A stretch of 64,000 bases of DNA. Source: a virus. The stretch lies in UHGV virus genome UHGV-1366640; one strand, 5' to 3'. The translations under genes were made by a program, and so were the position numbers. The notes beneath the pieces were generated by a model. That model saw only the letters and a program-made list of their open reading frames with translations, was not told the origin of the DNA and ran no database searches. This document shows, piece after piece, positions 9,591 to 52,801 of this stretch; positions within the stretch are counted from its first letter, which is position 1, and every line of letters starts with the position of its first letter.

Positions 9591-10226
9591 ATGGCATACG
9601 ATAAAACAGTCTATTCTTTGAATGATGTTCATGTTCAGGTAATTCTTCCAAAAGATTTTAAAATCATTTGTGTTGATTCAAGGAAAAGATCTTTACAATA
9701 TCAAAATTATGCGAATGCTGGTTATTTTGCACTTCTCAAAGATGGGTCAACTCTTCCAACCGGAAATCTTGTTATCAATGGAGATGTTGTCACTTCTGCA
9801 GATTCTCAACCAAATTGGCTCAATACATATAAACATATTCTTTCAACGATTGTTATAGATCACCATGACACTCCAAAGTTCGTTCAAACTTCTAAGATAG
9901 AAAAAGATGAATTCAAGTATGCAATAAGTGGTATTCCAATTATTCATAATGGATATCGTGTTTCCATGGATTCAATCAGACAAGAAGGATATTTCGGAAA
10001 TGAGTGTTATCAAACATGGCACAGCTTCCTTGGTATTCGTGGAAAGAAGCTTGTATATGTTGCTGCTAACATTGGTTTCAATCAAATGGTCTATCTCCTT
10101 GAAGTCCTTGGTATCGAAAATGGTATTAAGTTAGATGGCGGTGGAAGTTTTATCTGTAAGAGTGGAAAAGACTGGCAGATTGCTACATCTGAGAACCGTA
10201 GAATAAATAATATAATAACTTGGTAA
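9591..10226 (+). CDS. phosphodiester glycosidase (NAGPA-like) domain protein
   Basis: 211 aa; motifs FALLKDGS...INGDVV ... IHNGYRV ... KLDGGGS resemble the phosphodiester glycosidase family. Confidence 0.4.
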   Translation: MAYDKTVYSLNDVHVQVILPKDFKIICVDSRKRSLQYQNYANAGYFALLKDGSTLPTGNLVINGDVVTSADSQPNWLNTYKHILSTIVIDHHDTPKFVQTSKIEKDEFKYAISGIPIIHNGYRVSMDSIRQEGYFGNECYQTWHSFLGIRGKKLVYVAANIGFNQMVYLLEVLGIENGIKLDGGGSFICKSGKDWQIATSENRRINNIITW

Positions 10227-10243
10227 TGAATTACCCTCTGAGA

Positions 10244-10333
10244 AGCCTTCAGAGCTTCTCAGATTAAAGAAGTGAGTCAGGGTAGTATAACTATACCCCT
10301 ACTCACTTTCTTTCAATACAAAGCCTTGTAGAT
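10244..10333. repeat. structured intergenic repeat, copy A (two stem-loops)
   Basis: Hairpin CTGAGAAGC/GCTTCTCAG (10246-10270), then a long imperfect stem ATTAAAGAAGTGAGTCAGGGTA ... TACCCCTACTCACTTTCTTTCAAT with loop GTATAACTA. Homologous copies at 34468-34586 and 47938-48056. Confidence 0.7.
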
Positions 10334-10350
10334 AATCCTATGAAAGGAGA

Positions 10351-10749
10351 ATGTTTATGAATGATGTGATTATTGCCTTTGTAGATCATCTTCTTGTTCC
10401 GATTATTATCACAGTGATTGTTCCTTTTCTTATCTCTCTTATCAGACAGAGAGTTGCTAAACTTGAGAATGATGAAGCAAGATCATTATTTGATGGTGCA
10501 CTATATGAACTTCAGGGTGCTGTTTCAACAGCTGTATCTGCTGTGTCACAGACATATGTTGATGCTCTTAAGAAAGAGAAAAAGTTTTCTACAGAATCTC
10601 AGAAAGAAGCATTCAGGCAGGCATATCAAAAGTCAATCAGTTTACTTTCAACTGAGACTTTGAATTATCTTAAGACAAAATTCTCTGATGAAGACTTTGA
10701 AGAACTCATTGGGAGTTATATAGAATCAATAATTTACAAAAACAAATAA
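10351..10749 (+). CDS. membrane protein
   Basis: 132 aa; N-terminal ~30-aa hydrophobic segment, then an amphipathic charged region. Confidence 0.45.
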   Translation: MFMNDVIIAFVDHLLVPIIITVIVPFLISLIRQRVAKLENDEARSLFDGALYELQGAVSTAVSAVSQTYVDALKKEKKFSTESQKEAFRQAYQKSISLLSTETLNYLKTKFSDEDFEELIGSYIESIIYKNK

Positions 10750-10765
10750 AAATAAACCGTTAAAT

Positions 10766-10810
10766 TTAAGAGTTTTCTATATGTATACACCGTTTATAGT
10801 AGTATAAAAT
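10766..10810 (+). promoter_or_regulatory. phage promoter-like bipartite motif (AAGAGTTT-N15-CGTTTATAG)
   Basis: Same architecture as motifs at 34636, 52786, 56965, 59111 and 62190. The block AAACCGTTAAATTTAAGAGTTT is nearly identical to 34624-34646. Confidence 0.45.
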
Positions 10811-10825
10811 TATATAGATGCTTAA

Positions 10826-14588: not shown

Positions 14589-14782
14589 AATGAAATTATG
14601 AAGATTTCTTTTGTATGTTGATGAGAACTCCCTTTTCAAGGATTTTGTTCAAATTGAATCAATTTATCAAGTTGAATGAATTTTATGAATATTTTGGGTA
14701 GATAATCATAGCATGCAATCTTTGATCAGGGTGTTCTTTATTCATTCATTCAAAAGGATAAATAAAGAAAGGATTGATAATT

Positions 14783-16089
14783 ATGGCAAGAACTCTTGCT
14801 GAATCTTATAATGGTGCTTCTGCTAAATTTGGTATAGGCACTTCTGCAAATGCACTTCTTAACAAATGGAACAAGGAAGTTTCGATCATCAATGAAGCTT
14901 TTAATGGAAAAGCAAATCCGGATAAAGTTCTTGGTACTGCTATTCTTCTTGAAAATACTGAAAGACACATTAGAAACTGTGCTACAAGAAATGCAATGTT
15001 CAGTGGTGTCCTCAATGAAGGTACGACTACAGCTGATGTTTCTTACTTCAAACAGTTTGCGTTCAACAACTTGATTGCAGTATATCCGAACCTGATTGCC
15101 CCTGAACTTGTTTCTTCTCAGCCGATGCTGTCAAGAGCTGGTTCTATCAGATACATTCGTGCTATCTATGGTAGCAATAAGGGTGGTATCAAGAAGGGTG
15201 ATACAATGTTTGGTCAGTATTCGCTTGGTGATCATCCTGCAGATGCTACATATTCCAGTGGCAGTGTTGAGGGTGAACTTCTTGGTACTGATGCTGCGAC
15301 TACGAATTTCAATCTCTCCTGGACTCCTGTAATTCCTGGAACTGTTGAAATCTTGTCGGGTGATGGTACTCTCACATATCGTGATGATTCCATTGGTGGT
15401 ATCGTATCTACAGCAGGTGCTGCTTCTGGTAGTATTGATTATGCAACTGGTAAGATCACATTCACTGCTGCTCCTGCTGCTGGATTCACTGCAAACTATG
15501 AATATGACAATGTTGATACTCTCCCGATTCAGGCTCCTGAGATTCAGGTTAAGATAGTTGAGACTCCTGTCTATGCAAAATCCAGAAAACTCAAAACTCT
15601 CTTCAGCTTTGATAGTGATGCTGACCTCTCGAATGATTTTGGTATTTCTCTTTCTGCAGAAATCCTTTCGATGAGTTCTGCACAGCTTAAGAGAGAAATC
15701 GATGATGAGATAATTATAGATCTTAGCACCAAGGGCACAGCTCCCGGGACTTCGTTTGATGCTACAGTTCCTGATGGTGTATCACTTGTTGATCACTATG
15801 CTGGTTTCCCAGCAGCTGTTGCAGTTGCATCGAATAACATCTGGAATGCTACTCAGGTTGGTAATGCATCGTGGATCATCGTTGGTCAGGATGCTGCTAA
15901 CATTGTTGAAGCTATTCCGAGATTCAAATCTTTGGGTGTAGTGAATCCGAAGGGATCTCATCTTGCTGGTTATCTTGGTAATCTTCCTGTGTATAAGTCT
16001 ACTGCTGTTGCAGCTGATGCATGGGTAGTTGGTTATAAAGGTGACAGTTTGTTTGAAGCTGGCTATATTTGGGCTCCCTATCTTCCTAT
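14783..16089 (+). CDS. major capsid protein, exon 1 (as read, the ORF continues to a TAA at 16106-16108 inside the intron)
   Basis: ATG 14783 after SD AAAGAAAGGA. 444-aa track ORF, hydrophilic and Gly/Ala/Thr-rich, follows the scaffold gene. Proposed 5' splice site after U16089. Confidence 0.55.
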
Positions 16090-17414
16090 TGAAAAACAAG
16101 TAGCTTAATTCACAATGAATTAAGAATCCCTCAGTGAACTCAGGGAAACTCCTAAAGCTCAATCTACCAAAGTCATACAGTGATGTGTGACTGGATGATC
16201 TAATCAATCATGTATGGTAACAAGGGTTGAGATGTTACAATGGACAATCCTGATCCAAGTCACTCTTTTGTCAGAGTGAAAGGAGCAACGACTATTAAGT
16301 AGAGCCAAATGGTACGGCAGTCTTGGAGAGCGTAAGTCCGTTTAATTCGAAGTGCTGATAATCATATGATATAGTCTGGTCTATCCAATACTTAATTGGT
16401 ACTGTTAGAGTTGTCAGTAGTCGAAAGACATAGATTGAATTAGTGAATTCTTATTTCCCAACATCCTCACATTGAAGGAGGTGAATGTAGTGTTAAAATA
16501 TCAGTGTCAACTGTGTGACAGATCTACTTTTAAGAACTGGAGAGATTTTGTTACACATTTACGACGACACAAGATCCGTAAGAAAGAGTATTTTGAGAGA
16601 TTTCCGTATATCTATCCAGAACCAGTTGGTGTTTATGGAGTTGACTATGTGACTTGTCCGATTTGTAATGATAATCGTGAATTTCAAAGTTTGACTCAAC
16701 ATTTGATAAATAAACATAAGATCTTAACTGAAGAGTTCTTAGTCAAGTTTCCAGGAAAGAAACTTTTCACAGAAAAGTATTCTAAGATGCGAGCTGATTT
16801 TTGTAGAAAAGGCTTGACAAAGAATTGGGCGGATCCTGAATATCGTAAAAAGAGATCAGAATACTGTTCAGAATTTTTCAGTAAAATTAATTCTGGCAGT
16901 AAGAGACCTGTTCAATCTGAAACAATGAAGAAGACTTTGAAACGATTGTGGAAAGATGAAGAATATTGTAAGAAGCAATCTGAACGAATGAAAGAAAGAC
17001 ACAAATCTGGGGAGCTTGAAAGACAAGTTCTTAATGGTTTCGGGAAGAAATGGATCAAGCATGAAACTTGGTATGGAAAGATAGCAACTCTTAAAAGTTC
17101 TTACGAAGTCTATGTTGCTAAATTTCTTGATGAAAATAAGATCATGTATGAATACGAAAAGATGTATGAGTATCATGACTCTTATTCAGACAGGGATAGA
17201 AAATATTATGCAGATTTCTATCTTCCAGATTATAATATTGTATTAGAAGTCAAAGCTTCTTGGGCAATAGATCGTTATCAAGTTCTAAGAGATAAGATGC
17301 TTGCAGTTTTAGAAACTGGTACACGATATAAATATGTCACTGAACGAGATTTGGGAAAACTCGTCAGCTTGAAAGAATTCGAAATGCTAATTCAGAGTAA
17401 CAATAACGAATGAG
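16090..17414 (+). mobile_element. group I self-splicing intron with embedded homing endonuclease ORF
   Basis: Core elements visible: P2 hairpin CUUAAUUCA-CAA-UGAAUUAAG (16104-16124); P4 CUCAGGGAAACUCC; GUAUGGUAACAAGG; GGACAAUCCUGAUCC; R-like AACGACUAUUAAGUAGAGCC; S-like GAUAUAGUCUGG. Proposed P1 pairs exon CUAU(16086-16089) with IGS AGUAG(16099-16103), including a U16089-G16100 wobble. G17414 would be the omega G. The splice is in-frame. Confidence 0.7.
16472..17413 (+). CDS. intron-encoded homing endonuclease: 2x C2H2 zinc finger + NUMOD-like repeats + PD-(D/E)XK nuclease
   Basis: Two C2H2 fingers (CQLCDRSTFKNWRDFVTHLRRH; CPICNDNREFQSLTQHLINKH). Lys/Arg-rich NUMOD3-like repeats (SETMKKTLKRLWKDEEYCKK...). 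C-terminal ADFYLPDYNIVLEVK is a PD-x6-E-V-K nuclease motif. The true start may be GTG 16490 after SD AAGGAGG. Confidence 0.55.
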   Translation: MKEVNVVLKYQCQLCDRSTFKNWRDFVTHLRRHKIRKKEYFERFPYIYPEPVGVYGVDYVTCPICNDNREFQSLTQHLINKHKILTEEFLVKFPGKKLFTEKYSKMRADFCRKGLTKNWADPEYRKKRSEYCSEFFSKINSGSKRPVQSETMKKTLKRLWKDEEYCKKQSERMKERHKSGELERQVLNGFGKKWIKHETWYGKIATLKSSYEVYVAKFLDENKIMYEYEKMYEYHDSYSDRDRKYYADFYLPDYNIVLEVKASWAIDRYQVLRDKMLAVLETGTRYKYVTERDLGKLVSLKEFEMLIQSNNNE

Positions 17415-17529
17415 TACACAACTTCTTATGGACGAAACCTTCACAGGTCGTCAAGGTTATTCGACCAGCTATGCAAAGAAGATGACAGCGTCAGACTTCT
17501 ATGCAACCAATACTATTACACATTCCTAA
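17415..17529 (+). CDS. major capsid protein, exon 2 (37 codons, unannotated)
   Basis: After the proposed splice, codon AT|T is restored (Ile) and the reading continues TQLLMDETFTGRQGYSTSYAKKMTASDFYATNTITHS to TAA 17527-17529. Too short to appear in the ORF track. Confidence 0.5.
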
Positions 17530-17740
17530 TTTTTGATTAGAGATTCTTTGAGATTCATGGAAGAGAGTTCTTATGTGTGATCATTTACCTCTCCGAAAAA
17601 GGTTTTGCTTTGTTTTCATGTGTAATTCTCTCCTTTGAATATATTTGTTAATACATTGTTTGCTACCTCCAAAATATAATATTACATTCACACAAGAAGC
17701 TTTCCATGGATCTCTTAGTGATCTCTCTGAAAGGATTGAT

Positions 17741-32000: not shown

Positions 32001-34462
32001 GTGCAGATCCAAATCTTGTTGCTAACTTGCAAAAGGGCGGATTTACAAAAGATGAGATTAAATATCTAACAACAGGTGAAGCTGATTTTGGTGCAGATGT
32101 TGATTACTGGAAAGCAAGAGGTGGAATCGATACAACTCGTCTTAATGATAGTGGAAAGTATGATGAGCAATTTAATGTTGTAGCAAAGAAATATGGAGCA
32201 TCATCAATTACAACTGCAACTGAAGCAAAATCTAAGATGGATAAGTCACAGCAATACCTTGATGTTTTGCTTGGACGAAAAGAGATTCCTGGAATAGACA
32301 ATGGTTGGCTTCCTACGATTGGAGCATATTTCCAAAATGGTCAATTTGTTGGTAAGACTTCTGCAATAAAGTCTATGTCTGATAGTATTGTTAATTATGA
32401 AAAACTTGTTGGACTTGGCACAATCAATGGACAGGCTGGTTGGGTTTTTAAGAACAGAGATTCGGAACAAGATTGGTATGATAAAGCTAAATTTTGGAGT
32501 ACAAATCCTGACAAATATCCAAAAATAAAACAAGCATCTACGACTTTTGATGCTTCTGGATATGCTGGTGGTTCAAAAAATCTTGGAGGAGCATCTGCAG
32601 AGTTTCGCCCAGCGCATGCTGGTGGTCTTAACAAGGTTCCATATGATAATTATCTTGCTCTTCTGCATAAGGATGAAAGAGTCCTCACTGCAAAAGAAAA
32701 TCAGGCATATACATCAAGGATTTCTGATGTATTTTCTGGTGGATCTTCAGAAGATATTGAACTTGCTAAGAATACTCTCAGGGAAGATGAATTACATAAT
32801 GAATTGCTGACATCTCAAATCACAGAAATGAAATCTGGTGCAGAACTCGATAAGACATCAAATATTCTCTCTGAATCGGGCAACAAGTTGCTGTCTCAGT
32901 TGAACAAAAGACTTAATGATAACACATGGCAGATTGGTCAATTAACAATAGTTTCTTCTAAACTTCAAGAGATCTTAAAACCAATATCCAATGTTATGAA
33001 GGAAATTGGTAAGATTCTTAAAGAGGAAGAAGAGAATGCTAAGAAAGCAGCTCAATTTGGAGAGACTGATAAAAAAGATTCTAATAGTGGTGGTGTCAAC
33101 GATCCATTCTTGTCAATGGGAACAAAAGTTACTTCTCCATTCGGTCCGAGATGGGGTACTTTCCACTATGGACAAGATTATGGATTCCAAATGGGAACTC
33201 CTCTTCCTGCAATAATGAGTGGTGTTATCACAGAGAGTGGTTTCAATAATGGTTGCGGAAATTATGTTGTCCTTCAAGGTGATAATGGAGATTGGTTTAG
33301 ATATCTTCATATGAAAGAACCCGGACTTCCAACAGGCACTCAAGTCAATTATGGTGATATTGTTGGTCTTTGTGGCTCAACTGGTGATTCAACCGGACCT
33401 CATCTTCATTTTGAAACATATCATCCAGGAGCAAAAGAAGCAGTTAAAGGTAATGGTCTTATGGATCCTGCTATTTACTTCGATAAATATTATGTTGGCG
33501 GAGCAAGAAAGTCCTTCAGAAATAAGATCAAACAATTCTTCCAAAAGTATCTATTTGGTGGTGGAGAAGGAAACTATGATGTTGATCTCAGTTTCATGCG
33601 TCTCCTCGAATCAGGTACATCTGGTATTGAAGGATATCGTAGAACAACTGTATCTCCTCTTGGATATGCATATGGTGGTTATCAGTTTTCATCTCAGCCA
33701 GGAAATGGTGTTGATACACCGAGTGTCTTCATTTCTTGGTTGAAAAACAGTACAAATTCATCATACAGATCAATTGCAAGTACACTTGGAAATGGTAAAT
33801 ACACAGGTTTTGACTTTGCAATGATGAAATCCTTGTGGGAAAATGCTTATGATCAAAATCCGAATGCCTTTAAGAGTGCACAGGATGCTTTTGAATATGA
33901 ACATTATGTAAAACCTGCTCTTGCTCCATATCTTGATAGAAAAGGTCTTAATGCAAAACTCAAAGCAGTCATGGCTGGTCATGCAAACTGGATGGGCTCT
34001 GGTGGATTTTCTTCCATGATGTCAAGGATTTCTGGAGATCTTACAAATCAAAAATATATGGATGCTGTTAGATCTTATATTCGTGGAGGAAGCAATTACG
34101 GTCAATTCGCTGCTGGTTTTGAAAACAGAATGAACAGGGAAGCTCAGTATCTTGGTGTTCATCGTAATGGTTTAGAATCAGTTCCGTATGATGGTTATCA
34201 GGCAGTTCTTCATCAAGGTGAACGAGTTCTCACAGCACCTGAAGCTGAAGCATACAGAAAAGCTCTTGCTGAAGCAAATGCTTATGTGCCAGAAGTTCCA
34301 TCTGAAGTCTATGTTGATAATGCTGATGTAGTTGATCGGCTTGAAACATTAATTAAAGTTGTCACAAACGGATTTGCAGCTGTAACAAAACAATCAGAGA
34401 ACACTGAAACAAAAGTTGTTAATGTGAGAAAGAGATCAAATTCTATTCTTTCATACACTTAA
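29075..34462 (+). CDS. tail tape measure protein with M23 peptidase domain
   Basis: 1795 aa. Gly/Ala-rich hydrophobic segment around nt 31080-31440. M23 motifs HYGQDYGF ... GSTGDSTGPHLHFE around 33160-33420. Internal duplicated motif VPYDxYxAxLHxxERVLTA at ~32630 and ~34180. Confidence 0.7.
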   Translation: MAVLDQLEMLNDQYAKAYSQLKSSARENSMARGKNVLGSSEALPMYTSDVNLSSLPKSISNIYAFMRTETKSFYTAMAAKIDVTNGLLTMIGKAQSEFWGDGHGDNFRDYLDESNQILADIINKDNTEYYNTMKDLVDSGVSDMRDAIQDLTKSTQKIRDQVKENAKEVKEKKDKDNAKDSTSWLKSLLRGIGKGALAAGGAAVDLGVKYGVSGKYTSQILPKSTQKSIESAVNKLNNFASSGIEWLNSNTIKSSALSKFNTGMNEALKVVTKYGTTQLDRMDDLYEKQDDMVDNLMKNYGLSVSQARAEAARVMTRQGVAPYRKYTKEEQWERTFGARESAINIGFSTPQQISVAAAQIREMDEIMPNLNFQSSELYQTLIRGYEETGQMSQQFFDDIRSATKNLMVDPTSLVSVGNQFTKYYKIVSKGSSDFYKNMSNVMRVTAKLEDQFVDSSKAFDEMLGLGFSTIDELSDETIQKNMILSQYMDPSIGGFVGLQKLARTDTAAAVEAQQKALGSYLRDMGINKAEDITTKDLYLLKNIGVTGFDQISEALNAGFADLNESEQKLQRNQGVDDYTAIESGKQQLYYLKANNEMFGGFKQEWEKWQESIDFELLNNQNLRNFYDNIQNATYGTKGLSWISNSIEAGLVGGALFTKVSDIYDLLAKKFKLPSIFAKGGKGAAGAGAGEVAKKGLGTVGRIGYGLAGTAAIAYGGYEGYQAYKTLKDPTASSAAVGAEKGRMAGAGLAVAGGATSLIGGAFMGSAIAGPIGLAIAGVGAGAILFSKHLKEINDSSEKLGEELTTYSQKFSDQYDVQIDTYKNTADYLSNVGGVSSTVADQLKLYDEQLQNGTISSGDFDTKIRELANSDETGTLQALITATNNGSGDLKEAIGKLVSEDGQTGALIDYYTELGKLTEATKAQTEAVDKNITAVLKDDRNRELKLATEGLYEGIIKSDAFKKKKWGSIAADLISAGADPNLVANLQKGGFTKDEIKYLTTGEADFGADVDYWKARGGIDTTRLNDSGKYDEQFNVVAKKYGASSITTATEAKSKMDKSQQYLDVLLGRKEIPGIDNGWLPTIGAYFQNGQFVGKTSAIKSMSDSIVNYEKLVGLGTINGQAGWVFKNRDSEQDWYDKAKFWSTNPDKYPKIKQASTTFDASGYAGGSKNLGGASAEFRPAHAGGLNKVPYDNYLALLHKDERVLTAKENQAYTSRISDVFSGGSSEDIELAKNTLREDELHNELLTSQITEMKSGAELDKTSNILSESGNKLLSQLNKRLNDNTWQIGQLTIVSSKLQEILKPISNVMKEIGKILKEEEENAKKAAQFGETDKKDSNSGGVNDPFLSMGTKVTSPFGPRWGTFHYGQDYGFQMGTPLPAIMSGVITESGFNNGCGNYVVLQGDNGDWFRYLHMKEPGLPTGTQVNYGDIVGLCGSTGDSTGPHLHFETYHPGAKEAVKGNGLMDPAIYFDKYYVGGARKSFRNKIKQFFQKYLFGGGEGNYDVDLSFMRLLESGTSGIEGYRRTTVSPLGYAYGGYQFSSQPGNGVDTPSVFISWLKNSTNSSYRSIASTLGNGKYTGFDFAMMKSLWENAYDQNPNAFKSAQDAFEYEHYVKPALAPYLDRKGLNAKLKAVMAGHANWMGSGGFSSMMSRISGDLTNQKYMDAVRSYIRGGSNYGQFAAGFENRMNREAQYLGVHRNGLESVPYDGYQAVLHQGERVLTAPEAEAYRKALAEANAYVPEVPSEVYVDNADVVDRLETLIKVVTNGFAAVTKQSENTETKVVNVRKRSNSILSYT

Positions 34463-34467
34463 ACGGT

Positions 34468-34586
34468 TAAAGAGGTCATAAGACCTCTTCTCGCACGCTG
34501 AGAGCCCCTCTAATTAAAGAAGTGAGTCAGGGTAGTATAATTATACCCTTACTCACTTTCTTTTAATACAGGGCTTCTGAGAGCTT
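34468..34586. repeat. structured intergenic repeat, copy B
   Basis: AGAGGTC-ATAA-GACCTCT hairpin, then AATTAAAGAAGTGAGTCAGGGTAGTATAATTATACCCTTACTCACTTTCTTTTAAT (~22-bp stem), flanked by GCTGAGAGC direct repeats. Confidence 0.7.
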
Positions 34587-34623
34587 CACAGACTTTTAGA
34601 GATTCTTAAGATCTGTATAGATT

Positions 34624-34680
34624 AAACCTTAAATTTAAGAGTTTCATAAAGATGTGAAGCGTTTATACCTATAGAGTTAT
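34624..34680 (+). promoter_or_regulatory. phage promoter-like bipartite motif (AAGAGTTT-N15-GCGTTTATAC)
   Basis: Same spacing and sequence class as the other GCGTTTATA sites; sits upstream of the baseplate operon. Confidence 0.45.
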
Positions 34681-34710: not shown

Positions 34711-35526
34711 TTGGTAACATCGATTGTAAATCTCAGTCTTCCAGTTGATGATCCAAATAGGTATATTGAAATTCCTGGATATGTTGCTGATTCATATTCA
34801 GAAACACTCTCAACCGCTCAATTTGAATCAATAACTACAATGGGAAGATCTTCTCCTGTTGTAATGTACAATAGTGGTAATGCAAGATCAATCAACTTCT
34901 CAATGCAATTTCATAGAGACATGATCGCTCCATATTCAACTGCCGTCAACTATGCTCAGCCAGGAATTGATGGAGATACGATCTATCAAGGATTGTATCT
35001 TGGTGAAGGAAAAGAACCATTGACAGAACAGCAATTGCTCAAAAGATATTATAATAATCTTCTACTTGATGTTAAGAATCAAATAGACTATGATTATTTC
35101 TCAAATCTTTCTGCTTATCAAAAAGCAAGAATCATATCGAGTGTTGATACAGGAGTCACTCCAAATGTTGCTCTTGACAAACTTCAACAGGAATATGATG
35201 AGCATACACTTCAAGCAGAGATAGAAGCATCAGCACGATTCCAGACATTTATCAATAAGATCAAAGCTCTGAATTATCCTGTGTATTCATCTGCTGGTGT
35301 CGTAGCTCCTCAGGTGTATCTTAAAATCGGAGAAACTCTTCGACTCAAGGGATATTGTGAAACAAGTGTCACATGGCAGAATGTTTCAAAATTCAATAAT
35401 CTCATTTCTGCAAATGTTACTTTCAATTTCACAGAAGTGGTTGATCAAGCATGGTCAGCTACAGAAGTCATTACAGGAATGCAAAGATATATCAAATGGA
35501 TGGATAGGGGGTTGAACCTTCGATGA
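34711..35526 (+). CDS. tail/baseplate protein (unknown)
   Basis: 271 aa, TTG start after SD AAGGAGAG. Confidence 0.35.
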   Translation: MVTSIVNLSLPVDDPNRYIEIPGYVADSYSETLSTAQFESITTMGRSSPVVMYNSGNARSINFSMQFHRDMIAPYSTAVNYAQPGIDGDTIYQGLYLGEGKEPLTEQQLLKRYYNNLLLDVKNQIDYDYFSNLSAYQKARIISSVDTGVTPNVALDKLQQEYDEHTLQAEIEASARFQTFINKIKALNYPVYSSAGVVAPQVYLKIGETLRLKGYCETSVTWQNVSKFNNLISANVTFNFTEVVDQAWSATEVITGMQRYIKWMDRGLNLR

Positions 35527-46864: not shown

Positions 46865-46893
46865 TTTACATTTGACTCTAAAAGTAGTATAAT
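46865..46893 (+). promoter_or_regulatory. sigma-A type promoter TTTACA-N17-TATAAT
   Basis: Counted by hand: -35 TTTACA 46865-46870, 17-nt spacer, -10 TATAAT 46888-46893. Lies upstream of the sigma-factor gene. Confidence 0.5.
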
Positions 46894-47883: not shown

Positions 47884-47895
47884 AATTCTTAGTAA

Positions 47896-47930
47896 AGAGT
47901 TCTCCATTTCGGAGAGCTCTTTTACTTTAT
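47896..47930 (+). terminator. rho-independent terminator AGAGTTCTCC-ATTTC-GGAGAGCTCT-TTTT
   Basis: 9/10 bp stem followed by a T-tract. Confidence 0.5.
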
Positions 47931-47937
47931 AAAACTT

Positions 47938-48056
47938 ATGAGACCTCTCAAGACCTCTTCTCGAGCGTTCAGCGACTCTCAGATTAAAGAAAGACCCTCA
48001 GGTAGTATAAGTATACCTTTTAGTCACTTTTTAGTTTACAGCGCTTCTGAGAGCCT
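47938..48056. repeat. structured intergenic repeat, copy C (degenerate)
   Basis: Homologous to copy B across ~115 nt: GACCTCTTCTCG ... CAGATTAAAGAA ... GGTAGTATAAGTATACC ... CTTCTGAGAGC. Stem complementarity is partly lost. Confidence 0.6.
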
Positions 48057-48165
48057 TCTGCTGATCTACCATCAAATTCAGAAGATTCTAAGAGTGATCT
48101 CCACCATCACAGAAAATATTTTCATAAAATTTTTATAAATTTTTGGAGTCGTCCTGAGAATCTCA

Positions 48166-48183
48166 GCGTTTATATTTGGGGAA
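48166..48183 (+). promoter_or_regulatory. GCGTTTATATTTGG promoter-like motif upstream of the topoisomerase operon
   Basis: Matches the -10-like half of the recurring motif. Confidence 0.35.
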
Positions 48184-48290: not shown

Positions 48291-51200
48291 ATGTCAAACA
48301 AAACAAACAATGAAGAATATACAGTTGATTCAATTCAGGTACTTGATGACATTCAACACATCAGATTGAGAAAGGGAATGTACATAGGAGAAACATATGA
48401 TCCTCATCATCTCTTTTCAGAAGCATTTGATAATGCAATAGATGAAGCTCAATCTGGAAACAGTGATCTTACAATTATTAAGAAATTCAAAGATGAGAAC
48501 GGAAAATTACATTATTATGTGAGAGATCATGGTAGAGGAATTCCTATTGGCAAGATTCTCTATGGAGAGAAAGAAGTGGAAGCTCTTCAGATTCTCTTTA
48601 CAAAATGTAATTCAGGAGCGAAGTTCAGTTCTGACAATTATAGAATCTGTTCTGGAACTCATGGAGTTGGTGGTGTCTGTATCTGTGCTCTCTCAGAATG
48701 GATGAGAGTAACAACAATCAGAGATCACAGATCTGTTTCATTGGTCACAGAATTTGGAGAAGTAAAAGATCTCGTTTATTCAGATACAGATGAAGAAAAT
48801 GGAGTTGAAATTGAGTTCATACCAGATCCTTCTGAATTTGAATCTTCTGAGATCCCAGATTCCTTTATCATTGACAGATGTGAAGTTGCTCAGGCAATGG
48901 GATATCCAGTAGATCTTTTTATCAATGATAAGAAGATTGAAATTAAGATAAATTCTCTCTTGGATTTAATACATCTTCAACCAGATGTCACGGAATACTG
49001 TTCAGATGTGATCAAAGTCAAAGATGAATCAACAGGAGAATCTTTCATTGTAGGATTCAAATATACATCAGATACAAAATACAGAATCAATGGATATACG
49101 AATCTCCTTTATAATTCATATGGAGGAACTCATACAAGATGTACAATAGATGCTGTCACACAAGCTTGGTCAAAATATACAGAGGAGAGATCTCTTGTAT
49201 GGGATGATTGTCTTCTTGGAATGAAGATTGTTGTAGCAGCATTTATAGATAATATTGCTTTTTCATCACAGACGAAAGATAAGTTGACTGTGCCGAAATC
49301 TCAATTGAAAACATTGACAGATCTTCTCTCACTCAAATTTGAAGAGTGGATAGAGTCACATAAAGATCTCTGTACAAAATTGCTTGATAGATTTTCAGAG
49401 TATCGAGCAGCTCAAAGAAAATTGGAATCTCAAAAGGAGATTATGAATGTTGTACAGATCTCAAAGAAAGATAAGAGTGGTCGTCTTCGCAGAGGAAGTT
49501 CTGTTGTGTCATCGTTGATTGATTGTACTTCTCCTTCAAAAGAGGATACTGAGTTGTATATCTGTTTGGCAGGAGATACGAAAATCAAAATGCTCGATGG
49601 TACTTCTCCGACATTAGAAGAATTGACTGAAAGATATAAGGATCCTGATGAGGAATTTTGGGTGTATTCTTGTGATGATTCTGGAGAGTTCATTCCTGCA
49701 AAGGCTCATAATCCTCGACTGACAAGATATGTAGATGAGTTGTATGAGATTTCTCTGTCAGATGGTACAATTGTGAAATGTACAGGAAATCATAAATTTA
49801 TGAATAGAGAAACGATGGACTGGATAAGAACAGATGAAATGACAGTTGGTACATCATTACATCATCTAAGTTTTGGAAAAACTGCAGATGGTAGATGTAC
49901 GGTTTTTGTGAATAAAGATTCTTCATATAAAGAAGAGCCTGTTTACCGAATTATTGGTAATCTATTCTATAAAGAAGAGCATGATAGACTATTTAATAGA
50001 TTTCGGAGAACTGGCGATGTATTAGATCGTCCTCAGCTTCATCATAAGAATTGCAACAAATTTGATGATCGTCCTGAGAATATAGAATGTATTACTCAAC
50101 GAGAGCATTGGGATGGGTACAGGCACGGATCGTTAAGTAGCCAAAGGATTACTGATTACAATAGATCAGATTCTCATAAAAGAGATATGAAAATTGCATG
50201 GAGCAATCCTGAATTACGAAAAAGGATGTCAGTTGGAGGAAAGCATACTGATCTTTCTAAGCAGAAATTACATGATCTTGCAGTAGATCCGAATTCTCGG
50301 GTATGTGCAAAAACATGGTCAGAGACTTACAATAACTCTGAGAAACATCATATTGACTTAATTACAAGATTTGAAAGATTTCCGAATCTAAAAGAGAAGT
50401 ATTCTCAAAGAACTTCCGAGATGAATAAGAACCCTCAGATTAAGAGAAATCAGATGAGAGGAAGAATTGGTAAAATAATGAGAGCACTATTTGATAGAGG
50501 ATTGGAATTTTCTGAAGAGTCCTGGAATTTGGTAAATTCTCAGCTTCATCATTCAAGTGTTAAGTACTCAACAATTCTAAAATATTTTGATTCTTACGAA
50601 GAAGCATGTAAATTTGGTCAGAATTGGAATTATAAAGTTGTTTCTATCAAACGAATTTCCTCTCCTCATACTCCTGTATATTGTATGACAGTAGATTCGA
50701 CTCACAGATTTGCTTTAGAGAACGGACTTATCAGCAAAAATTGTGAGGGGTTGTCGGCTTCGGGTTCTATAGCAAGACCTCGCAATAAGGAATTTCAGGC
50801 AGTTCTTCCTCTTCGTGGAAAGATAAAGAATATTGCAGGATATTCTCTCAAAGATGCTTTGAAGTTTGAAACAGTTGCGAATATTGTTAATTCAATTGGA
50901 TGTGGTATCGGAGAATCAGCTGATCCAGAGAAGTCAAGATATGAGAAGATTATTATCTCTGCCGACAAGGATTCAGATGGATCGCATATAGTAGCTCTTG
51001 TTCTTACAGCAATTGTGAATCTCCTTCCATCAATCGTCAAGGCAGGAATGGTTTATATCTTAGATGCTCCTTTCTATAAGTATTGGACAAAAGATGGAAA
51101 ACATCACTATACAAGTGATTTCAATGAGGTTCCTCAGTGGAGTTTTGATAATCACAAGTTTCTCAGATTCAAGGGTCTTGGTTCTATGGATGATTCAGAC

Positions 51201-51386
51201 TTCAAAGATGCTTGTCTGAATGCTGAGAATAGAGTTTTATTTCAAGTTGAATATCCTGATGATCTTGAGAGATTCAATCATCTTGCTGGTACATCTGCTG
51301 GTAGGAATGAATTGTTATCACACTATGGTGTCATAAGATCAATATCAGATTTAGAAGAGGATGAATCTGTAGATGAAGACTCCTAA
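48291..51386 (+). CDS. type II topoisomerase large (GyrB/gp39-like ATPase+TOPRIM) subunit, containing an intein
   Basis: ATPase motif GTHGVGGVCICALSEW. TOPRIM extein ...TELYI|(intein)|CEGLSASGS...EFQAVLPLRGKIKNI matches GyrB ELYLVEGDSAGGS...KFQAILPLRGKILNV. ATG 48291 is the likely start; the track gives TTG 48234. Confidence 0.7.
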   Translation: MSNKTNNEEYTVDSIQVLDDIQHIRLRKGMYIGETYDPHHLFSEAFDNAIDEAQSGNSDLTIIKKFKDENGKLHYYVRDHGRGIPIGKILYGEKEVEALQILFTKCNSGAKFSSDNYRICSGTHGVGGVCICALSEWMRVTTIRDHRSVSLVTEFGEVKDLVYSDTDEENGVEIEFIPDPSEFESSEIPDSFIIDRCEVAQAMGYPVDLFINDKKIEIKINSLLDLIHLQPDVTEYCSDVIKVKDESTGESFIVGFKYTSDTKYRINGYTNLLYNSYGGTHTRCTIDAVTQAWSKYTEERSLVWDDCLLGMKIVVAAFIDNIAFSSQTKDKLTVPKSQLKTLTDLLSLKFEEWIESHKDLCTKLLDRFSEYRAAQRKLESQKEIMNVVQISKKDKSGRLRRGSSVVSSLIDCTSPSKEDTELYICLAGDTKIKMLDGTSPTLEELTERYKDPDEEFWVYSCDDSGEFIPAKAHNPRLTRYVDELYEISLSDGTIVKCTGNHKFMNRETMDWIRTDEMTVGTSLHHLSFGKTADGRCTVFVNKDSSYKEEPVYRIIGNLFYKEEHDRLFNRFRRTGDVLDRPQLHHKNCNKFDDRPENIECITQREHWDGYRHGSLSSQRITDYNRSDSHKRDMKIAWSNPELRKRMSVGGKHTDLSKQKLHDLAVDPNSRVCAKTWSETYNNSEKHHIDLITRFERFPNLKEKYSQRTSEMNKNPQIKRNQMRGRIGKIMRALFDRGLEFSEESWNLVNSQLHHSSVKYSTILKYFDSYEEACKFGQNWNYKVVSIKRISSPHTPVYCMTVDSTHRFALENGLISKNCEGLSASGSIARPRNKEFQAVLPLRGKIKNIAGYSLKDALKFETVANIVNSIGCGIGESADPEKSRYEKIIISADKDSDGSHIVALVLTAIVNLLPSIVKAGMVYILDAPFYKYWTKDGKHHYTSDFNEVPQWSFDNHKFLRFKGLGSMDDSDFKDACLNAENRVLFQVEYPDDLERFNHLAGTSAGRNELLSHYGVIRSISDLEEDESVDEDS
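49563..50741 (+). other. intein (393 aa) with HNH endonuclease domain
   Basis: N-terminal CLAGDTKIKMLDG (Hint block A), internal HNH LHHKNCNKFDDRPENIECITQREH, C-terminal VYCMTVDSTHRFALENGLISKN followed by +1 Cys. Removing it restores a colinear GyrB TOPRIM motif. Confidence 0.7.
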
Positions 51387-51723
51387 TTTTCATTATGGTC
51401 AAGTATGGCTCGTTCAGGATCAATCAAAAATTAGGCATGGTTCAATTCAACAGAAGATGAGACCGATGATCATAATTTCCAATGAGAAGAATAACATTTA
51501 TTCACCGATACTCAATGTTATTCCTCTCACTGGTTCAAGAGATCTTCCTCGAGGATCATATCAAATTCAATATTATCTTGGACTTCGTCAAACTCCAATT
51601 ACTGTATTGTGTGAACAGATTACGACGATCAGCAAAGAGGACTGTGTCAGATATCTTTATACATTGAGTGACGATATCTTGACAGAAGTTCAAAGGGCAT
51701 TAAGGATCCAATTATCTCTATAG
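51373..51723 (+). CDS. MazF/PemK (Kid)-family toxin-like protein, no adjacent antitoxin
   Basis: GQVWLVQDQSK..HGSIQQKMRPMIIIS...PILNVIPLTG and VLCEQITTISKEDC align by eye with Kid/PemK (GEIWLVSLDPTAGHEQQGTRPVLIVT...VVPVTSG; VRCDQPRTIDMKAR). Overlaps the topoisomerase stop by 14 nt. Confidence 0.5.
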   Translation: MKTPNFHYGQVWLVQDQSKIRHGSIQQKMRPMIIISNEKNNIYSPILNVIPLTGSRDLPRGSYQIQYYLGLRQTPITVLCEQITTISKEDCVRYLYTLSDDILTEVQRALRIQLSL

Positions 51724-51742: not shown

Positions 51743-52801
51743 ATGCAGAATCGACGAAATGATATACCATATCTTGGGTGCAACAATATTGAGGGCATTA
51801 AGAATCCAAAAGATCCTGGAATATTGCAAGATAGATTAGAAATTTTATACCATTTTATCACAGAAAGATATAAGATTTGGTTAAGAAGAAATGCTGGTCA
51901 AAAGAGACCTTGGACTGATGATGAAATTCTTAGAGATTTCAGTTTTACGAATATCCGAAGAGAACAAGACAGGACAAGTCGCTGGCTGATAGAGCATATT
52001 TCGGAGAATGATGATCTATCAATTGCTGAGAAATTTTGGCAGACCATTATTTTTAGATTATATAATAAGATAGAGACAGCTGAATTGTTCAAACTTGGTT
52101 CGGGTTTTGACTGGGATTTTGAGAGAATTGAAGAAGCAAGATCTAAATCTGACATGAGATATTTATTTACAACAGCGTACTTTACATCAGGTTGCAGAGC
52201 AGCTTGGAATAGGAGATATCCAGATATTTCAAGATCATCACATCTTTCTACTCTTAAAGGAATCATTGATTATAGAAACGATTTTGATTATTCTGGTTTT
52301 GATTCTCCTATTAGATACCTTGATGACAAATACTACTGGAATGAAGATCTTCATGCAGATGATGTTGTTAATTGGCTTCTCAAAATTCCAGGATGTAAGT
52401 GGTTTATGGCTTATCAGTTATTCGTAGATCTTACATACATTCCATCTTTTCCAATTTCTGAGAATGAATATGTTGTTGCTGGTTCAGGATGCAGAACTGG
52501 TATCTGGTATTTGACTGAAACTTCAAAGTGGAAAGAAAATATGGTAGGAGATCTTAAATACTGGGAGTTTCTCTTTTGGTTAAGAGATCATCTTGAAGAT
52601 CTCTTCAGAGAGAGAGTTGATCCTAATTTCTCCTGTGATAAATTGTTTATAGATCTTCCATCAGAAGAAAGACATTTTAATGTTATGAGTCTTGAAAATG
52701 TCTTCTGTGAATTTTCAAAGTACATGAAATTGAAAGAAATGAAAGAAACAGGAAAGAAATGTCGAATAAGAAAATATTATGGTTCTGAGAGTATTCTATA
52801 A
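51743..52801 (+). CDS. hypothetical protein (352 aa) within the topoisomerase cluster
   Basis: Conserved-looking block KRPWTDDEILRDFSFTNIRREQDRTSRWL; no family assigned with confidence. Confidence 0.4.
   Translation: MQNRRNDIPYLGCNNIEGIKNPKDPGILQDRLEILYHFITERYKIWLRRNAGQKRPWTDDEILRDFSFTNIRREQDRTSRWLIEHISENDDLSIAEKFWQTIIFRLYNKIETAELFKLGSGFDWDFERIEEARSKSDMRYLFTTAYFTSGCRAAWNRRYPDISRSSHLSTLKGIIDYRNDFDYSGFDSPIRYLDDKYYWNEDLHADDVVNWLLKIPGCKWFMAYQLFVDLTYIPSFPISENEYVVAGSGCRTGIWYLTETSKWKENMVGDLKYWEFLFWLRDHLEDLFRERVDPNFSCDKLFIDLPSEERHFNVMSLENVFCEFSKYMKLKEMKETGKKCRIRKYYGSESIL

Follow-up and report, generated by a model that had tools for sequence, protein, structure and literature searches.

A long interrupted hairpin duplicated at operon ends of an uncultured 98-kb phage genome as a candidate intrinsic terminator or attenuator

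The DNA analyzed here, a 64,000-nt stretch of the virus genome UHGV-1366640 (hereafter the window), carries an intergenic hairpin element at several gene boundaries. Its first copy, designated copy A, fills the gap (10227-10350) between an open reading frame (ORF) with a NAGPA domain (9591-10226) and a holin gene (10351-10749, + strand; phrog_13712 holin, E 2.3e-20), and this gap holds the element alone, without a promoter-like motif. Every long ORF of the window is located on the + strand. The structural genes encode a T4-type portal, a Gp23-like capsid protein, a tail sheath, baseplate proteins and a tape measure of 1795 amino acids with a peptidase domain, while other genes encode the holin, an amidase, topoisomerase II subunits, a MazF-like protein, a 5-hmdU DNA kinase, helicases, a primase and an SSB-like protein. 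The genome is ~98.2 kb in size and was present in three assemblies, each identical to the window across the overlaps. GenBank phages gave no nucleotide match to the window, and a blastn search with the copy A region likewise returned none. The phage is uncultured and has T4-like structural genes, and its strong Shine-Dalgarno sites suggest a Firmicute host.

Three copies of the element within the window share a 17-mer (GGTAGTATAAnTATACC) at positions 10281 (copy A), 34531 (copy B) and 48001 (copy C), all on the + strand and intergenic, where 0.02 occurrences were expected from shuffles. The same sites are joined by a 70-nt direct-repeat family (90% identity between A and B, 61% between A and C). 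These findings agree with a preliminary description of this DNA, which had listed three copies and placed them at module boundaries; they are indeed situated past the NAGPA-domain gene, past the tape measure and before the topoisomerase operon. Within the window, a covariance model built on the known copies recovered no copy besides A, B and C; ~5.9 kb beyond the window end it detected a fourth, copy D (contig L135, 17616-17680, + strand; 46 bits), which adjoins the 3' side of the DNA polymerase A gene and precedes a DUF1599 gene. The sequence of L135 agrees fully with that of the window across their overlap. This copy count is based on ~73 kb of the 98-kb genome. All four copies have one orientation, on the coding strand, and begin 10-55 nt past a stop codon, that of the NAGPA-domain gene, the tape measure, a small early operon and DNA polymerase A, respectively.

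Closer examination of the individual copies revealed a main hairpin that is directly abutted by a U-rich tail in each of them, with the tract being partly pairable with an upstream AAAGAA. In copy A, the main hairpin (10263-10317, + strand; apex 17-mer 10281-10297, tail TTTCTTTCAAT, 91.9 bits) follows a small upstream hairpin (CTCTGAGAAGC/GCTTCTCAGA, 10236-10263, + strand; -14.5 kcal/mol) located 10 nt past the stop of ORF 9591-10226. Copy B (34498-34584, + strand; 93.3 bits) begins past the tape-measure stop at 34462, is preceded by its own small hairpin (AAGAGGTC-ATAA-GACCTCTT, 34470-34489, + strand; -10.8 kcal/mol) and consists of a main hairpin (34513-34567; apex 17-mer 34531-34547, tail TTTCTTTTAAT) with a CTGAGAGC box on either side, at 34498 and 34577. 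Copy C (47941-48054, + strand; 70.6 bits) contains a weakened main hairpin (47983-48037; apex 17-mer 48001-48017, tail TTTTTAGTTT) and a CTGAGAGC box at 48047. Its positions 47941-47963 are a non-folding remnant of the upstream hairpin of B, and the small-hairpin slot is taken by a separate canonical terminator (47894-47922, + strand) with a 12-bp stem, a T-rich tail and -17.0 kcal/mol. The tail of copy D reads TTTCTTTATTTAATT.

A GC hairpin upstream of all copies, which the preliminary description had considered a shared component, was not recovered, since the small upstream hairpins of A, B and D differ and are mutually non-homologous and C has lost that of B (0 to -3 kcal/mol). The flanking repeats reported there are real for B and C in the form of the CTGAGAGC boxes, but copy A has only CTCTGAGAAGC, which is part of its own upstream hairpin.

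Downstream of the hairpin, copies B, C and D exhibit a TCTGAGAG box followed by a recurrent promoter-like motif (AAATTTGAGAGT...GCGTTTATA). The complete order in these three copies is stop codon, small hairpin, main hairpin with U-rich tail, ACAG, a (C)TCTGAGA(G/A) box, a spacer of 35-100 nt, and AAATTT-(G/A)AGAGT...N15-GCGTTTA(T/C)A, followed by a ribosome-binding site and the start codon. Past copy B the promoter-like block spans 34616-34667 (+ strand; AAACCTTAAATTTAAGAGTTT...GCGTTTATA, repeat families D1 and D4) and ends 51 nt before the start codon at 34711. Past copy C it spans 48133-48174 (+ strand; AAATTTTTGGAGTC...GCGTTTATA, with GCGTTTATA at 48166) upstream of the topoisomerase II gene, which starts at 48291 as called on the source contig. 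Copy A is the exception, as the holin gene separates its hairpin from the promoter-like block of the portal gene (10747-10815, + strand; AAACCGTTAAATTTAAGAGTTT...CGTTTATA, repeat families D1 and D4), behind which follows the apex-like GTAGTATAAAATTATAT. The AAACCnTTAAATTTAAGAGTTT promoter block that had been described as following both A and B is therefore found ~50 nt past B, but in the case of A only past the whole holin gene, at 10747.

The motif AAATTT-(G/A)AGAGTTTT...N15-GCGTTTATA occurs at window positions 10767, 34636, 48139, 52786, 56965, 59111 and 62190 as well as at position 17711 of L135. Its CGTTTATA portion has six occurrences in the window, every one on the + strand and intergenic, at a distance of ~35-70 nt from the start codons of portal, baseplate and replication genes and of 124 nt from that of topoisomerase II. 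The motif precedes structural and replication genes alike, ~35-125 nt before their start codons. Since it does not fit the sigma-70 consensus, it may represent a phage-specific promoter class, and its presence at several hairpin-free gene junctions indicates that hairpin and promoter-like motif are separable modules.

A folding check proposed with the preliminary description was clear for two of the copies, with the ~110-127-nt regions of A (-36.7 kcal/mol, z -5.4) and B (-47.6 kcal/mol, z -6.0) being far better than shuffles, but not for copy C (z -1.2). The main hairpins alone were predicted at -19.8 (A), -21.6 (B), -10.1 (C) and -19.2 kcal/mol (D; z -4.8), so that A, B and D match or exceed the canonical terminators of this phage (-14 to -17 kcal/mol). 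At its base the hairpin has an AAAGAA/UUCUUU stem, above this a middle stem and finally a GGGUA/UACCC top that carries an A/U-rich apex, which together form a stem of ~20 bp with a bulge, an internal loop and a formal loop of 9 nt. In a 20-pair model, A, B and their orthologues exhibit Watson-Crick pairing throughout, while C has 13 Watson-Crick pairs and one G-U pair; overall, standard pairs occupy 94% of the pair cells, compared with 41-55% when the partners are slid. Copy D, with a helix of 11 + 5 pairs, pairs AGTCAGGGTA perfectly with TACCCTGACT, where A and B instead exhibit an internal loop and the 3' arm ACTCAC. The stem of copy C, previously regarded as decayed, is indeed weaker than those of A and B, but it has not disappeared and is partly maintained by changed pairs, with a GAC/GUC helix still present and an A-U pair remaining where the top stem begins. 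An initial count of four compensatory pairs in copy C was rejected as inflated by a one-base register shift; by inspection, only some two of them hold up, one flipping G-C to C-G and the other replacing G-C with A-U.

Among the four paralogues AAAGAA, GGTA.TATA..TATACC and the TACA just 3' of the hairpin are invariant, while the middle stems have diverged. The apex of copy D (GGGTAATATAGCTATACCC) carries three changes compared to B, and among paralogues and orthologues combined only positions 5, 10 and 11 of the 17-mer vary. If the stem continues as GGUA-n-UA / UA-UACC, these would be the positions of a predicted bulge and four-base loop. Variation confined to positions predicted as unpaired weakens the case for a sequence-specific loop signal, and the 16 of 17 positions at which B and C agree within the 17-mer are less remarkable given that these copies are 68% identical outside of it. 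Apparent loop conservation is largely as expected of a continuing A/U-rich stem, and selection on the loop sequence itself, as proposed in the preliminary description, has gained little support. A comparison of G-U strand asymmetry, which bears on a role in RNA versus DNA, offered too few informative sites.

Orthologues of the element were present only in close relatives. Copy A is kept in contigs L098 and L099 (portal identity 96-97%) and copy B in L104, L105 and L106 (neighbouring protein 87-92% identical), with the changes located at the apex centre, the internal loop or the stem base. In L104, the upstream hairpin of B has a 5' arm two bases shorter and differs in its 3' arm, and a 6-bp stem closed by a GUAA loop can still be drawn by eye. 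This comparison covers copies A and B, as the related contig L107 ends 330 nt before copy C. In relatives with ~65% portal identity there was no copy near the portal gene, and in one of them only 23 nt separate the tape measure from the next gene. Covariance models R1 and R2 were likewise negative for relatives whose portal identity is ~65% or 46%; a 21-bit match in L102 turned out to be a hairpin within a coding region. Conservation in relatives therefore extends to near-identical phages but not to those at ~65% portal identity.

Searches of larger collections yielded chance matches only. The exact 17-mer had 96 matches in IMG/VR, all unrelated and without stem context, mostly from one conserved stretch in related contigs, and a loop-agnostic stem pattern had four unrelated matches there. 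A stem-plus-apex pattern had a single chance match, within a gene, in the JGI metagenomes, and GGGTAGTATANNTATACCC had 21 unrelated matches without stem context in the GTDB genomes. These scans indicate that the element is specific to one narrow phage lineage. Rfam returned no match to the element at gathering thresholds over the window, and only generic hairpins far under threshold around copy B (best 26.5 versus 102 bits).

Taken together, we consider, with a probability of roughly 0.55, that the element acts as an intrinsic terminator or attenuator and that duplication has placed it at four or more operon ends within a single phage genome of 98 kb. It is most likely the terminator half of a duplicated terminator-promoter cassette and as such ordinary gene punctuation. 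The features expected of an intrinsic terminator are present, with a hairpin on the coding strand past a stop codon, a U-tract behind it and an A-tract in front of it. The weakest copy, C, has an independent strong terminator 60 nt upstream, which fits relaxed selection on a redundant terminator. A precedent is offered by T4-type phages, whose genomes are documented to contain repeated composite cassettes of terminator and promoter (PMC2839356, PMC4122927). Among the roles the preliminary description had offered, that of a terminator or processing site fits this anatomy of a hairpin past the stop, a U-rich tail and, in three of the four copies, a promoter-like motif downstream.

According to this model, RNA polymerase reaching an operon end on the + strand would transcribe a 40-55-nt interrupted hairpin and, on the U-rich tract right behind it, would stop or strongly reduce transcription, leaving at the 3' end a hairpin that should shield the upstream mRNA. 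At B, C and D, the next operon would be restarted 35-100 nt downstream from the promoter-like motif of the phage itself. At copy A, the holin would be expressed only through read-through and thus at an attenuated level, which would result in a low holin dose. The predicted operon map would read ...NAGPA / holin / portal...tape measure / baseplate...amidase / early genes / topoisomerase...DNA polymerase / next operon.

Several observations weigh against the terminator interpretation. A simple consensus terminator scan called none of the copies, which we attribute to the 9-nt formal loop and the interrupted stem, both atypical of intrinsic terminators. The ~20-bp stem exceeds what termination requires, and efficient termination at A would leave the holin gene without an evident promoter. 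The hairpin is palindromic and its minus strand folds equally well, so that the fold alone does not prove a role at the RNA level. The invariant apex and AAAGAA beside diverged middle stems hint at an added sequence-specific requirement. Furthermore, the window contains five instances of the 9-mer GTAGTATAA versus 0.26 expected, always in non-coding DNA and on the + strand: in the apices of A, B and C, at 10799 directly past the CGTTTATA of the portal promoter-like block, and at 46884-46892. The latter site belongs to the sole canonical sigma-70-type promoter in the window (TTTACA-N17-TATAAT, 46865-46893, + strand; 11/12 consensus), which is situated outside the element and whose -10 region, formed by GTAGTATAAT, contains the 9-mer. 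This recurrence at promoters is unaccounted for by termination. The apex-related sequence at the portal site (10799-10815), TAGTATAA(A)TTATATAG, is situated between the portal promoter and the portal start codon. Copy D lacks the 9-mer and reads GTAATATAG instead. A sequence resembling the 9-mer type (GGGTAGATAATCATAGC) is located at 14696-14712, upstream of the capsid gene.

The alternative that survives best, although it appears unlikely, is an endoribonuclease processing site, at which host ribonuclease (RNase) III or another RNase would cut the helix, split polycistronic transcripts and leave a stabilizing 3' hairpin. The run of 20 Watson-Crick pairs in A and B, unbroken or nearly so and with small internal loops, is consistent with this, as are the extension of the B helix into its flanks (~30 bp in B and C when the basal pairing of the CTGAGAGC region is counted), the intergenic position between expression modules and the similarity of the paralogues in both sequence and structure. 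Processing would, however, need neither a U-rich tail nor a downstream promoter, which are rather marks of termination and restart, and neither the weak copy C nor copy D with its two shorter helices offers a 20-bp helix. In a more speculative variant, the MazF-like endoribonuclease of the phage would cut the single-stranded apex or the conserved UACA 3' of the hairpin. The presence of its gene (51373-51723) and the unchanged TACA directly 3' of the hairpin in the four paralogues speak for this variant, but the relative L106 has TTCA in place of TACA, and the hairpin does not contain UACAU, the motif of the closest solved relatives of the MazF-like protein. The MazF/PemK-like gene is solitary and overlaps the end of the topoisomerase gene, with no antitoxin gene evident upstream. 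Its product matches Pfam PemK_toxin (E 2e-16) and the PHROG of MazF-like growth inhibitors, with S. aureus MazF as the closest solved structure.

Rather doubtful is the possibility that the apex is a sequence-specific binding site, either for a DNA-binding regulator recognizing the near-palindrome GTATA-NN-TATAC or for an RNA-binding protein that modulates termination. In the latter case, read-through would be regulated or antitermination would occur, and either version would tie the module boundaries to the temporal program of the phage. The constancy of GGTA.TATA..TATACC despite diverged middle stems, the apex-related sequences at the portal promoter-like block and in the -10 region of the early promoter, and the non-coding, + strand recurrence of GTAGTATAA all argue for such a site. 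The absence of the 9-mer from copy D argues against it, and structural constraint alone could explain an apex that varies just at predicted unpaired positions; the agreement between B and C within the 17-mer is, given their overall identity, little evidence of extra constraint. A conserved extra base in the left half makes the apex a poor fit to a symmetric dimer operator, and no candidate regulator was identified in the window.

A related and quite improbable proposal is that the invariant apex (GGUA-n-UAUA-nn-UAUACC) and AAAGAA together form the recognition site of a phage-encoded factor that turns the four terminators on or off in the course of infection. Such a factor could be an antiterminator that binds RNA, or else the solitary MazF-like endoribonuclease in the role of a RegB-like processing enzyme. 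If true, the hairpins would be regulated gates that set the early/middle/late order as well as the holin dose, and the GTAGTATAA sites at the early and portal promoters would be part of the same circuit.

Very doubtful is an embedded promoter in the strict sense of the promoter-early stem-loop (PeSL), with TTAAAG as the -35 and the apex TATAAn as the -10 element, 16 nt apart. Upstream transcripts would then end at the hairpin, while new ones would start in the 3' arm, be unable to form the hairpin and enter the next gene. TTAAAG-N16-TATAA is present in A, B and C versus 0.13 expected, B has a perfect TATAAT, and GTAGTATAAT also supplies the -10 region of the sigma-70-type promoter at 46865; such a promoter would moreover supply the holin gene, which has no other promoter-like motif upstream. 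Nevertheless, the -35 candidate matches TTGACA at only 3/6 positions and a promoter scan makes no call, the final -10 base, normally a strongly conserved T, varies between C, T and G, and copy D has TATAGC at -10 and ATAAAG at -35. In addition, a promoter-like motif of its own is already available downstream of each of B, C and D, and host-type early promoters would be unexpected for holin and baseplate genes.

Highly improbable is a miniature mobile element that spread within the genome, be it similar to miniature inverted-repeat transposable elements or an IS200/IS605-derived palindrome: several copies in one genome, the 90% identity of A and B amid unrelated flanking genes, the absence from the matching site of a more distant relative (the 23-nt gap behind the tape measure) and the activity of such elements in the lineage, indicated by an IS605-type TnpB inserted nearby in a close relative, stand against the lack, by inspection of the boundaries of B, C and D, of target-site duplications and of terminal inverted repeats beyond the hairpin itself, the single orientation and identical context (stop codon, hairpin, promoter) of the four copies, the left and right end hairpins of that insertion sequence being unrelated in sequence, and zero copies in the IMG/VR, JGI metagenome and GTDB genome collections scanned. 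The mobility considered in the preliminary description is thus not borne out, and neither the scan of further copies nor the search of phage and metagenome databases revealed any beyond this lineage. The TnpB element itself resides in L099 (ENA ERZ27271058 k141_394367, ~890-2310; portal identity 96%), where it has an ORF split in two and is inserted between holin and portal, directly past the CGTTTATA of the portal promoter-like block. A T4-type late promoter based on the apex TATAAnTA was rejected, as TATAAATA and TATAAnTA occur mostly within genes and on both strands without intergenic enrichment. No supporting feature was found for a mimic of a clustered regularly interspaced short palindromic repeat, a retron, a repetitive extragenic palindromic element, a parS site or a replication origin.

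Several further features of these genomes were recorded in the course of the analysis. In contigs L098, L105 and L106, position 1 is located inside the element or at its edge, and the intragenomic repeat may break short-read assemblies of related phages. An unrelated long intergenic hairpin with the arms CCTGAGAGC and GCTCTCAGG and a T-rich tail is present in L102 (17279-17360; ~65% portal identity), and its arms suggest that CTGAGAGC-type arms may be a wider terminator habit in this phage group.

The Gp23-like capsid ORF (14774-16108) is overlapped at its 3' end by the beginning of a group I intron-like RNA (16078-16398, + strand; Rfam RF00028, 35.6 bits, E 1.3e-6, under the gathering score of 50). 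It is followed by an ORF of 313 amino acids (16472-17413) with matches to endonuclease and resolvase-like PHROGs and then by a gap (17414-17644). Based on these matches, the major capsid gene probably contains an intron with a homing endonuclease. Similarly, the large GyrB-like subunit of topoisomerase II (48234/48291-51386) matches topoisomerase families at residues 14-443 and 837-1015, with HNH and helicase-like matches between the two GyrB-like parts, and the gene on the source contig has a precomputed Pfam Intein_splicing match. This topoisomerase gene looks like one that holds an intein with a homing endonuclease. The 5-hmdU DNA kinase is encoded at 51743-52801 (PF18723, E 5e-53), and just beyond the window (L135, 18655-21026) one gene of the thymidylate-synthase family and one dCMP-deaminase gene are located, the latter with a weak match to the TAGT domain. 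The combination of these three genes suggests thymidine hypermodification in the DNA of this phage.

If the terminator interpretation is correct, the hairpins and the AAATTTGAGAGT...GCGTTTATA motif would provide a first operon map of this uncultured 98-kb phage, derived from sequence alone. A holin gene placed between a terminator and the next promoter would be a simple way of keeping its dose low, and the cassette strategy of T4-type coliphages would extend to a distant lineage. The location of the repeat at contig ends in related phages is relevant to metagenomic assembly. No general principle is altered by these findings, and their value consists in local annotation and in a clean test case for predicting terminators whose hairpins are long and interrupted.

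Among known systems, the early mRNA of phage T7 contains intergenic RNase III sites, which are processing hairpins of polycistronic mRNA. The element resembles them in that several similar, imperfect hairpins of ~20 bp with shared sequence are located between co-directional genes. In contrast, RNase III sites are not known to precede U-tracts and restart promoters, and copies C and D have no continuous 20-bp helix. The likeness to intrinsic terminators comprises the transcribed-strand hairpin past a stop codon, the U-tract next to it and the pairable A-tract upstream. The element differs from them in its unusually long, interrupted stem and its 9-nt formal loop, compared with the uninterrupted stem and 3-8-nt loop of the scanner geometry, as well as in the paralogy of its copies, since ordinary terminators normally share no sequence.

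For the PeSL cassettes of T4-type phages, both terminator and promoter activities have been shown experimentally (Arbiol et al. 2010, PMC2839356; Comeau et al. 2014, PMC4122927). Their early promoters are close to the sigma-70 consensus and are combined with a short stem-loop that is located within or over the promoter boxes, often between them, and the cassettes are present in tens of copies in hyperplastic regions, where they flank variable ORFans and mediate shuffling (PMC2839356, PMC4122927). The element analyzed here instead has an interrupted hairpin of ~20 bp and a separate, phage-specific promoter-like motif 35-100 nt downstream, with no near-consensus sigma-70 promoter within the repeat. 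Only four copies are known in the ~73 kb covered, at major module boundaries, and no gene gain or loss, recombination or shuffling was seen at them among close relatives. As these defining features are not shared, we did not file the element as a PeSL. Both systems nevertheless are intergenic regulatory cassettes that recur in the genome of a myovirus whose structural genes are T4-like, with copies that are alike within a genome and lineage-specific and with G-runs pairing with C-runs (GGG...CCC here). In B, C and D, stem-loop and promoter-like motif are likewise combined in a single stop-to-start cassette, albeit with a different promoter type and with a function that we infer. At the level of this presumed function, the PeSL cassette is the closest described system.

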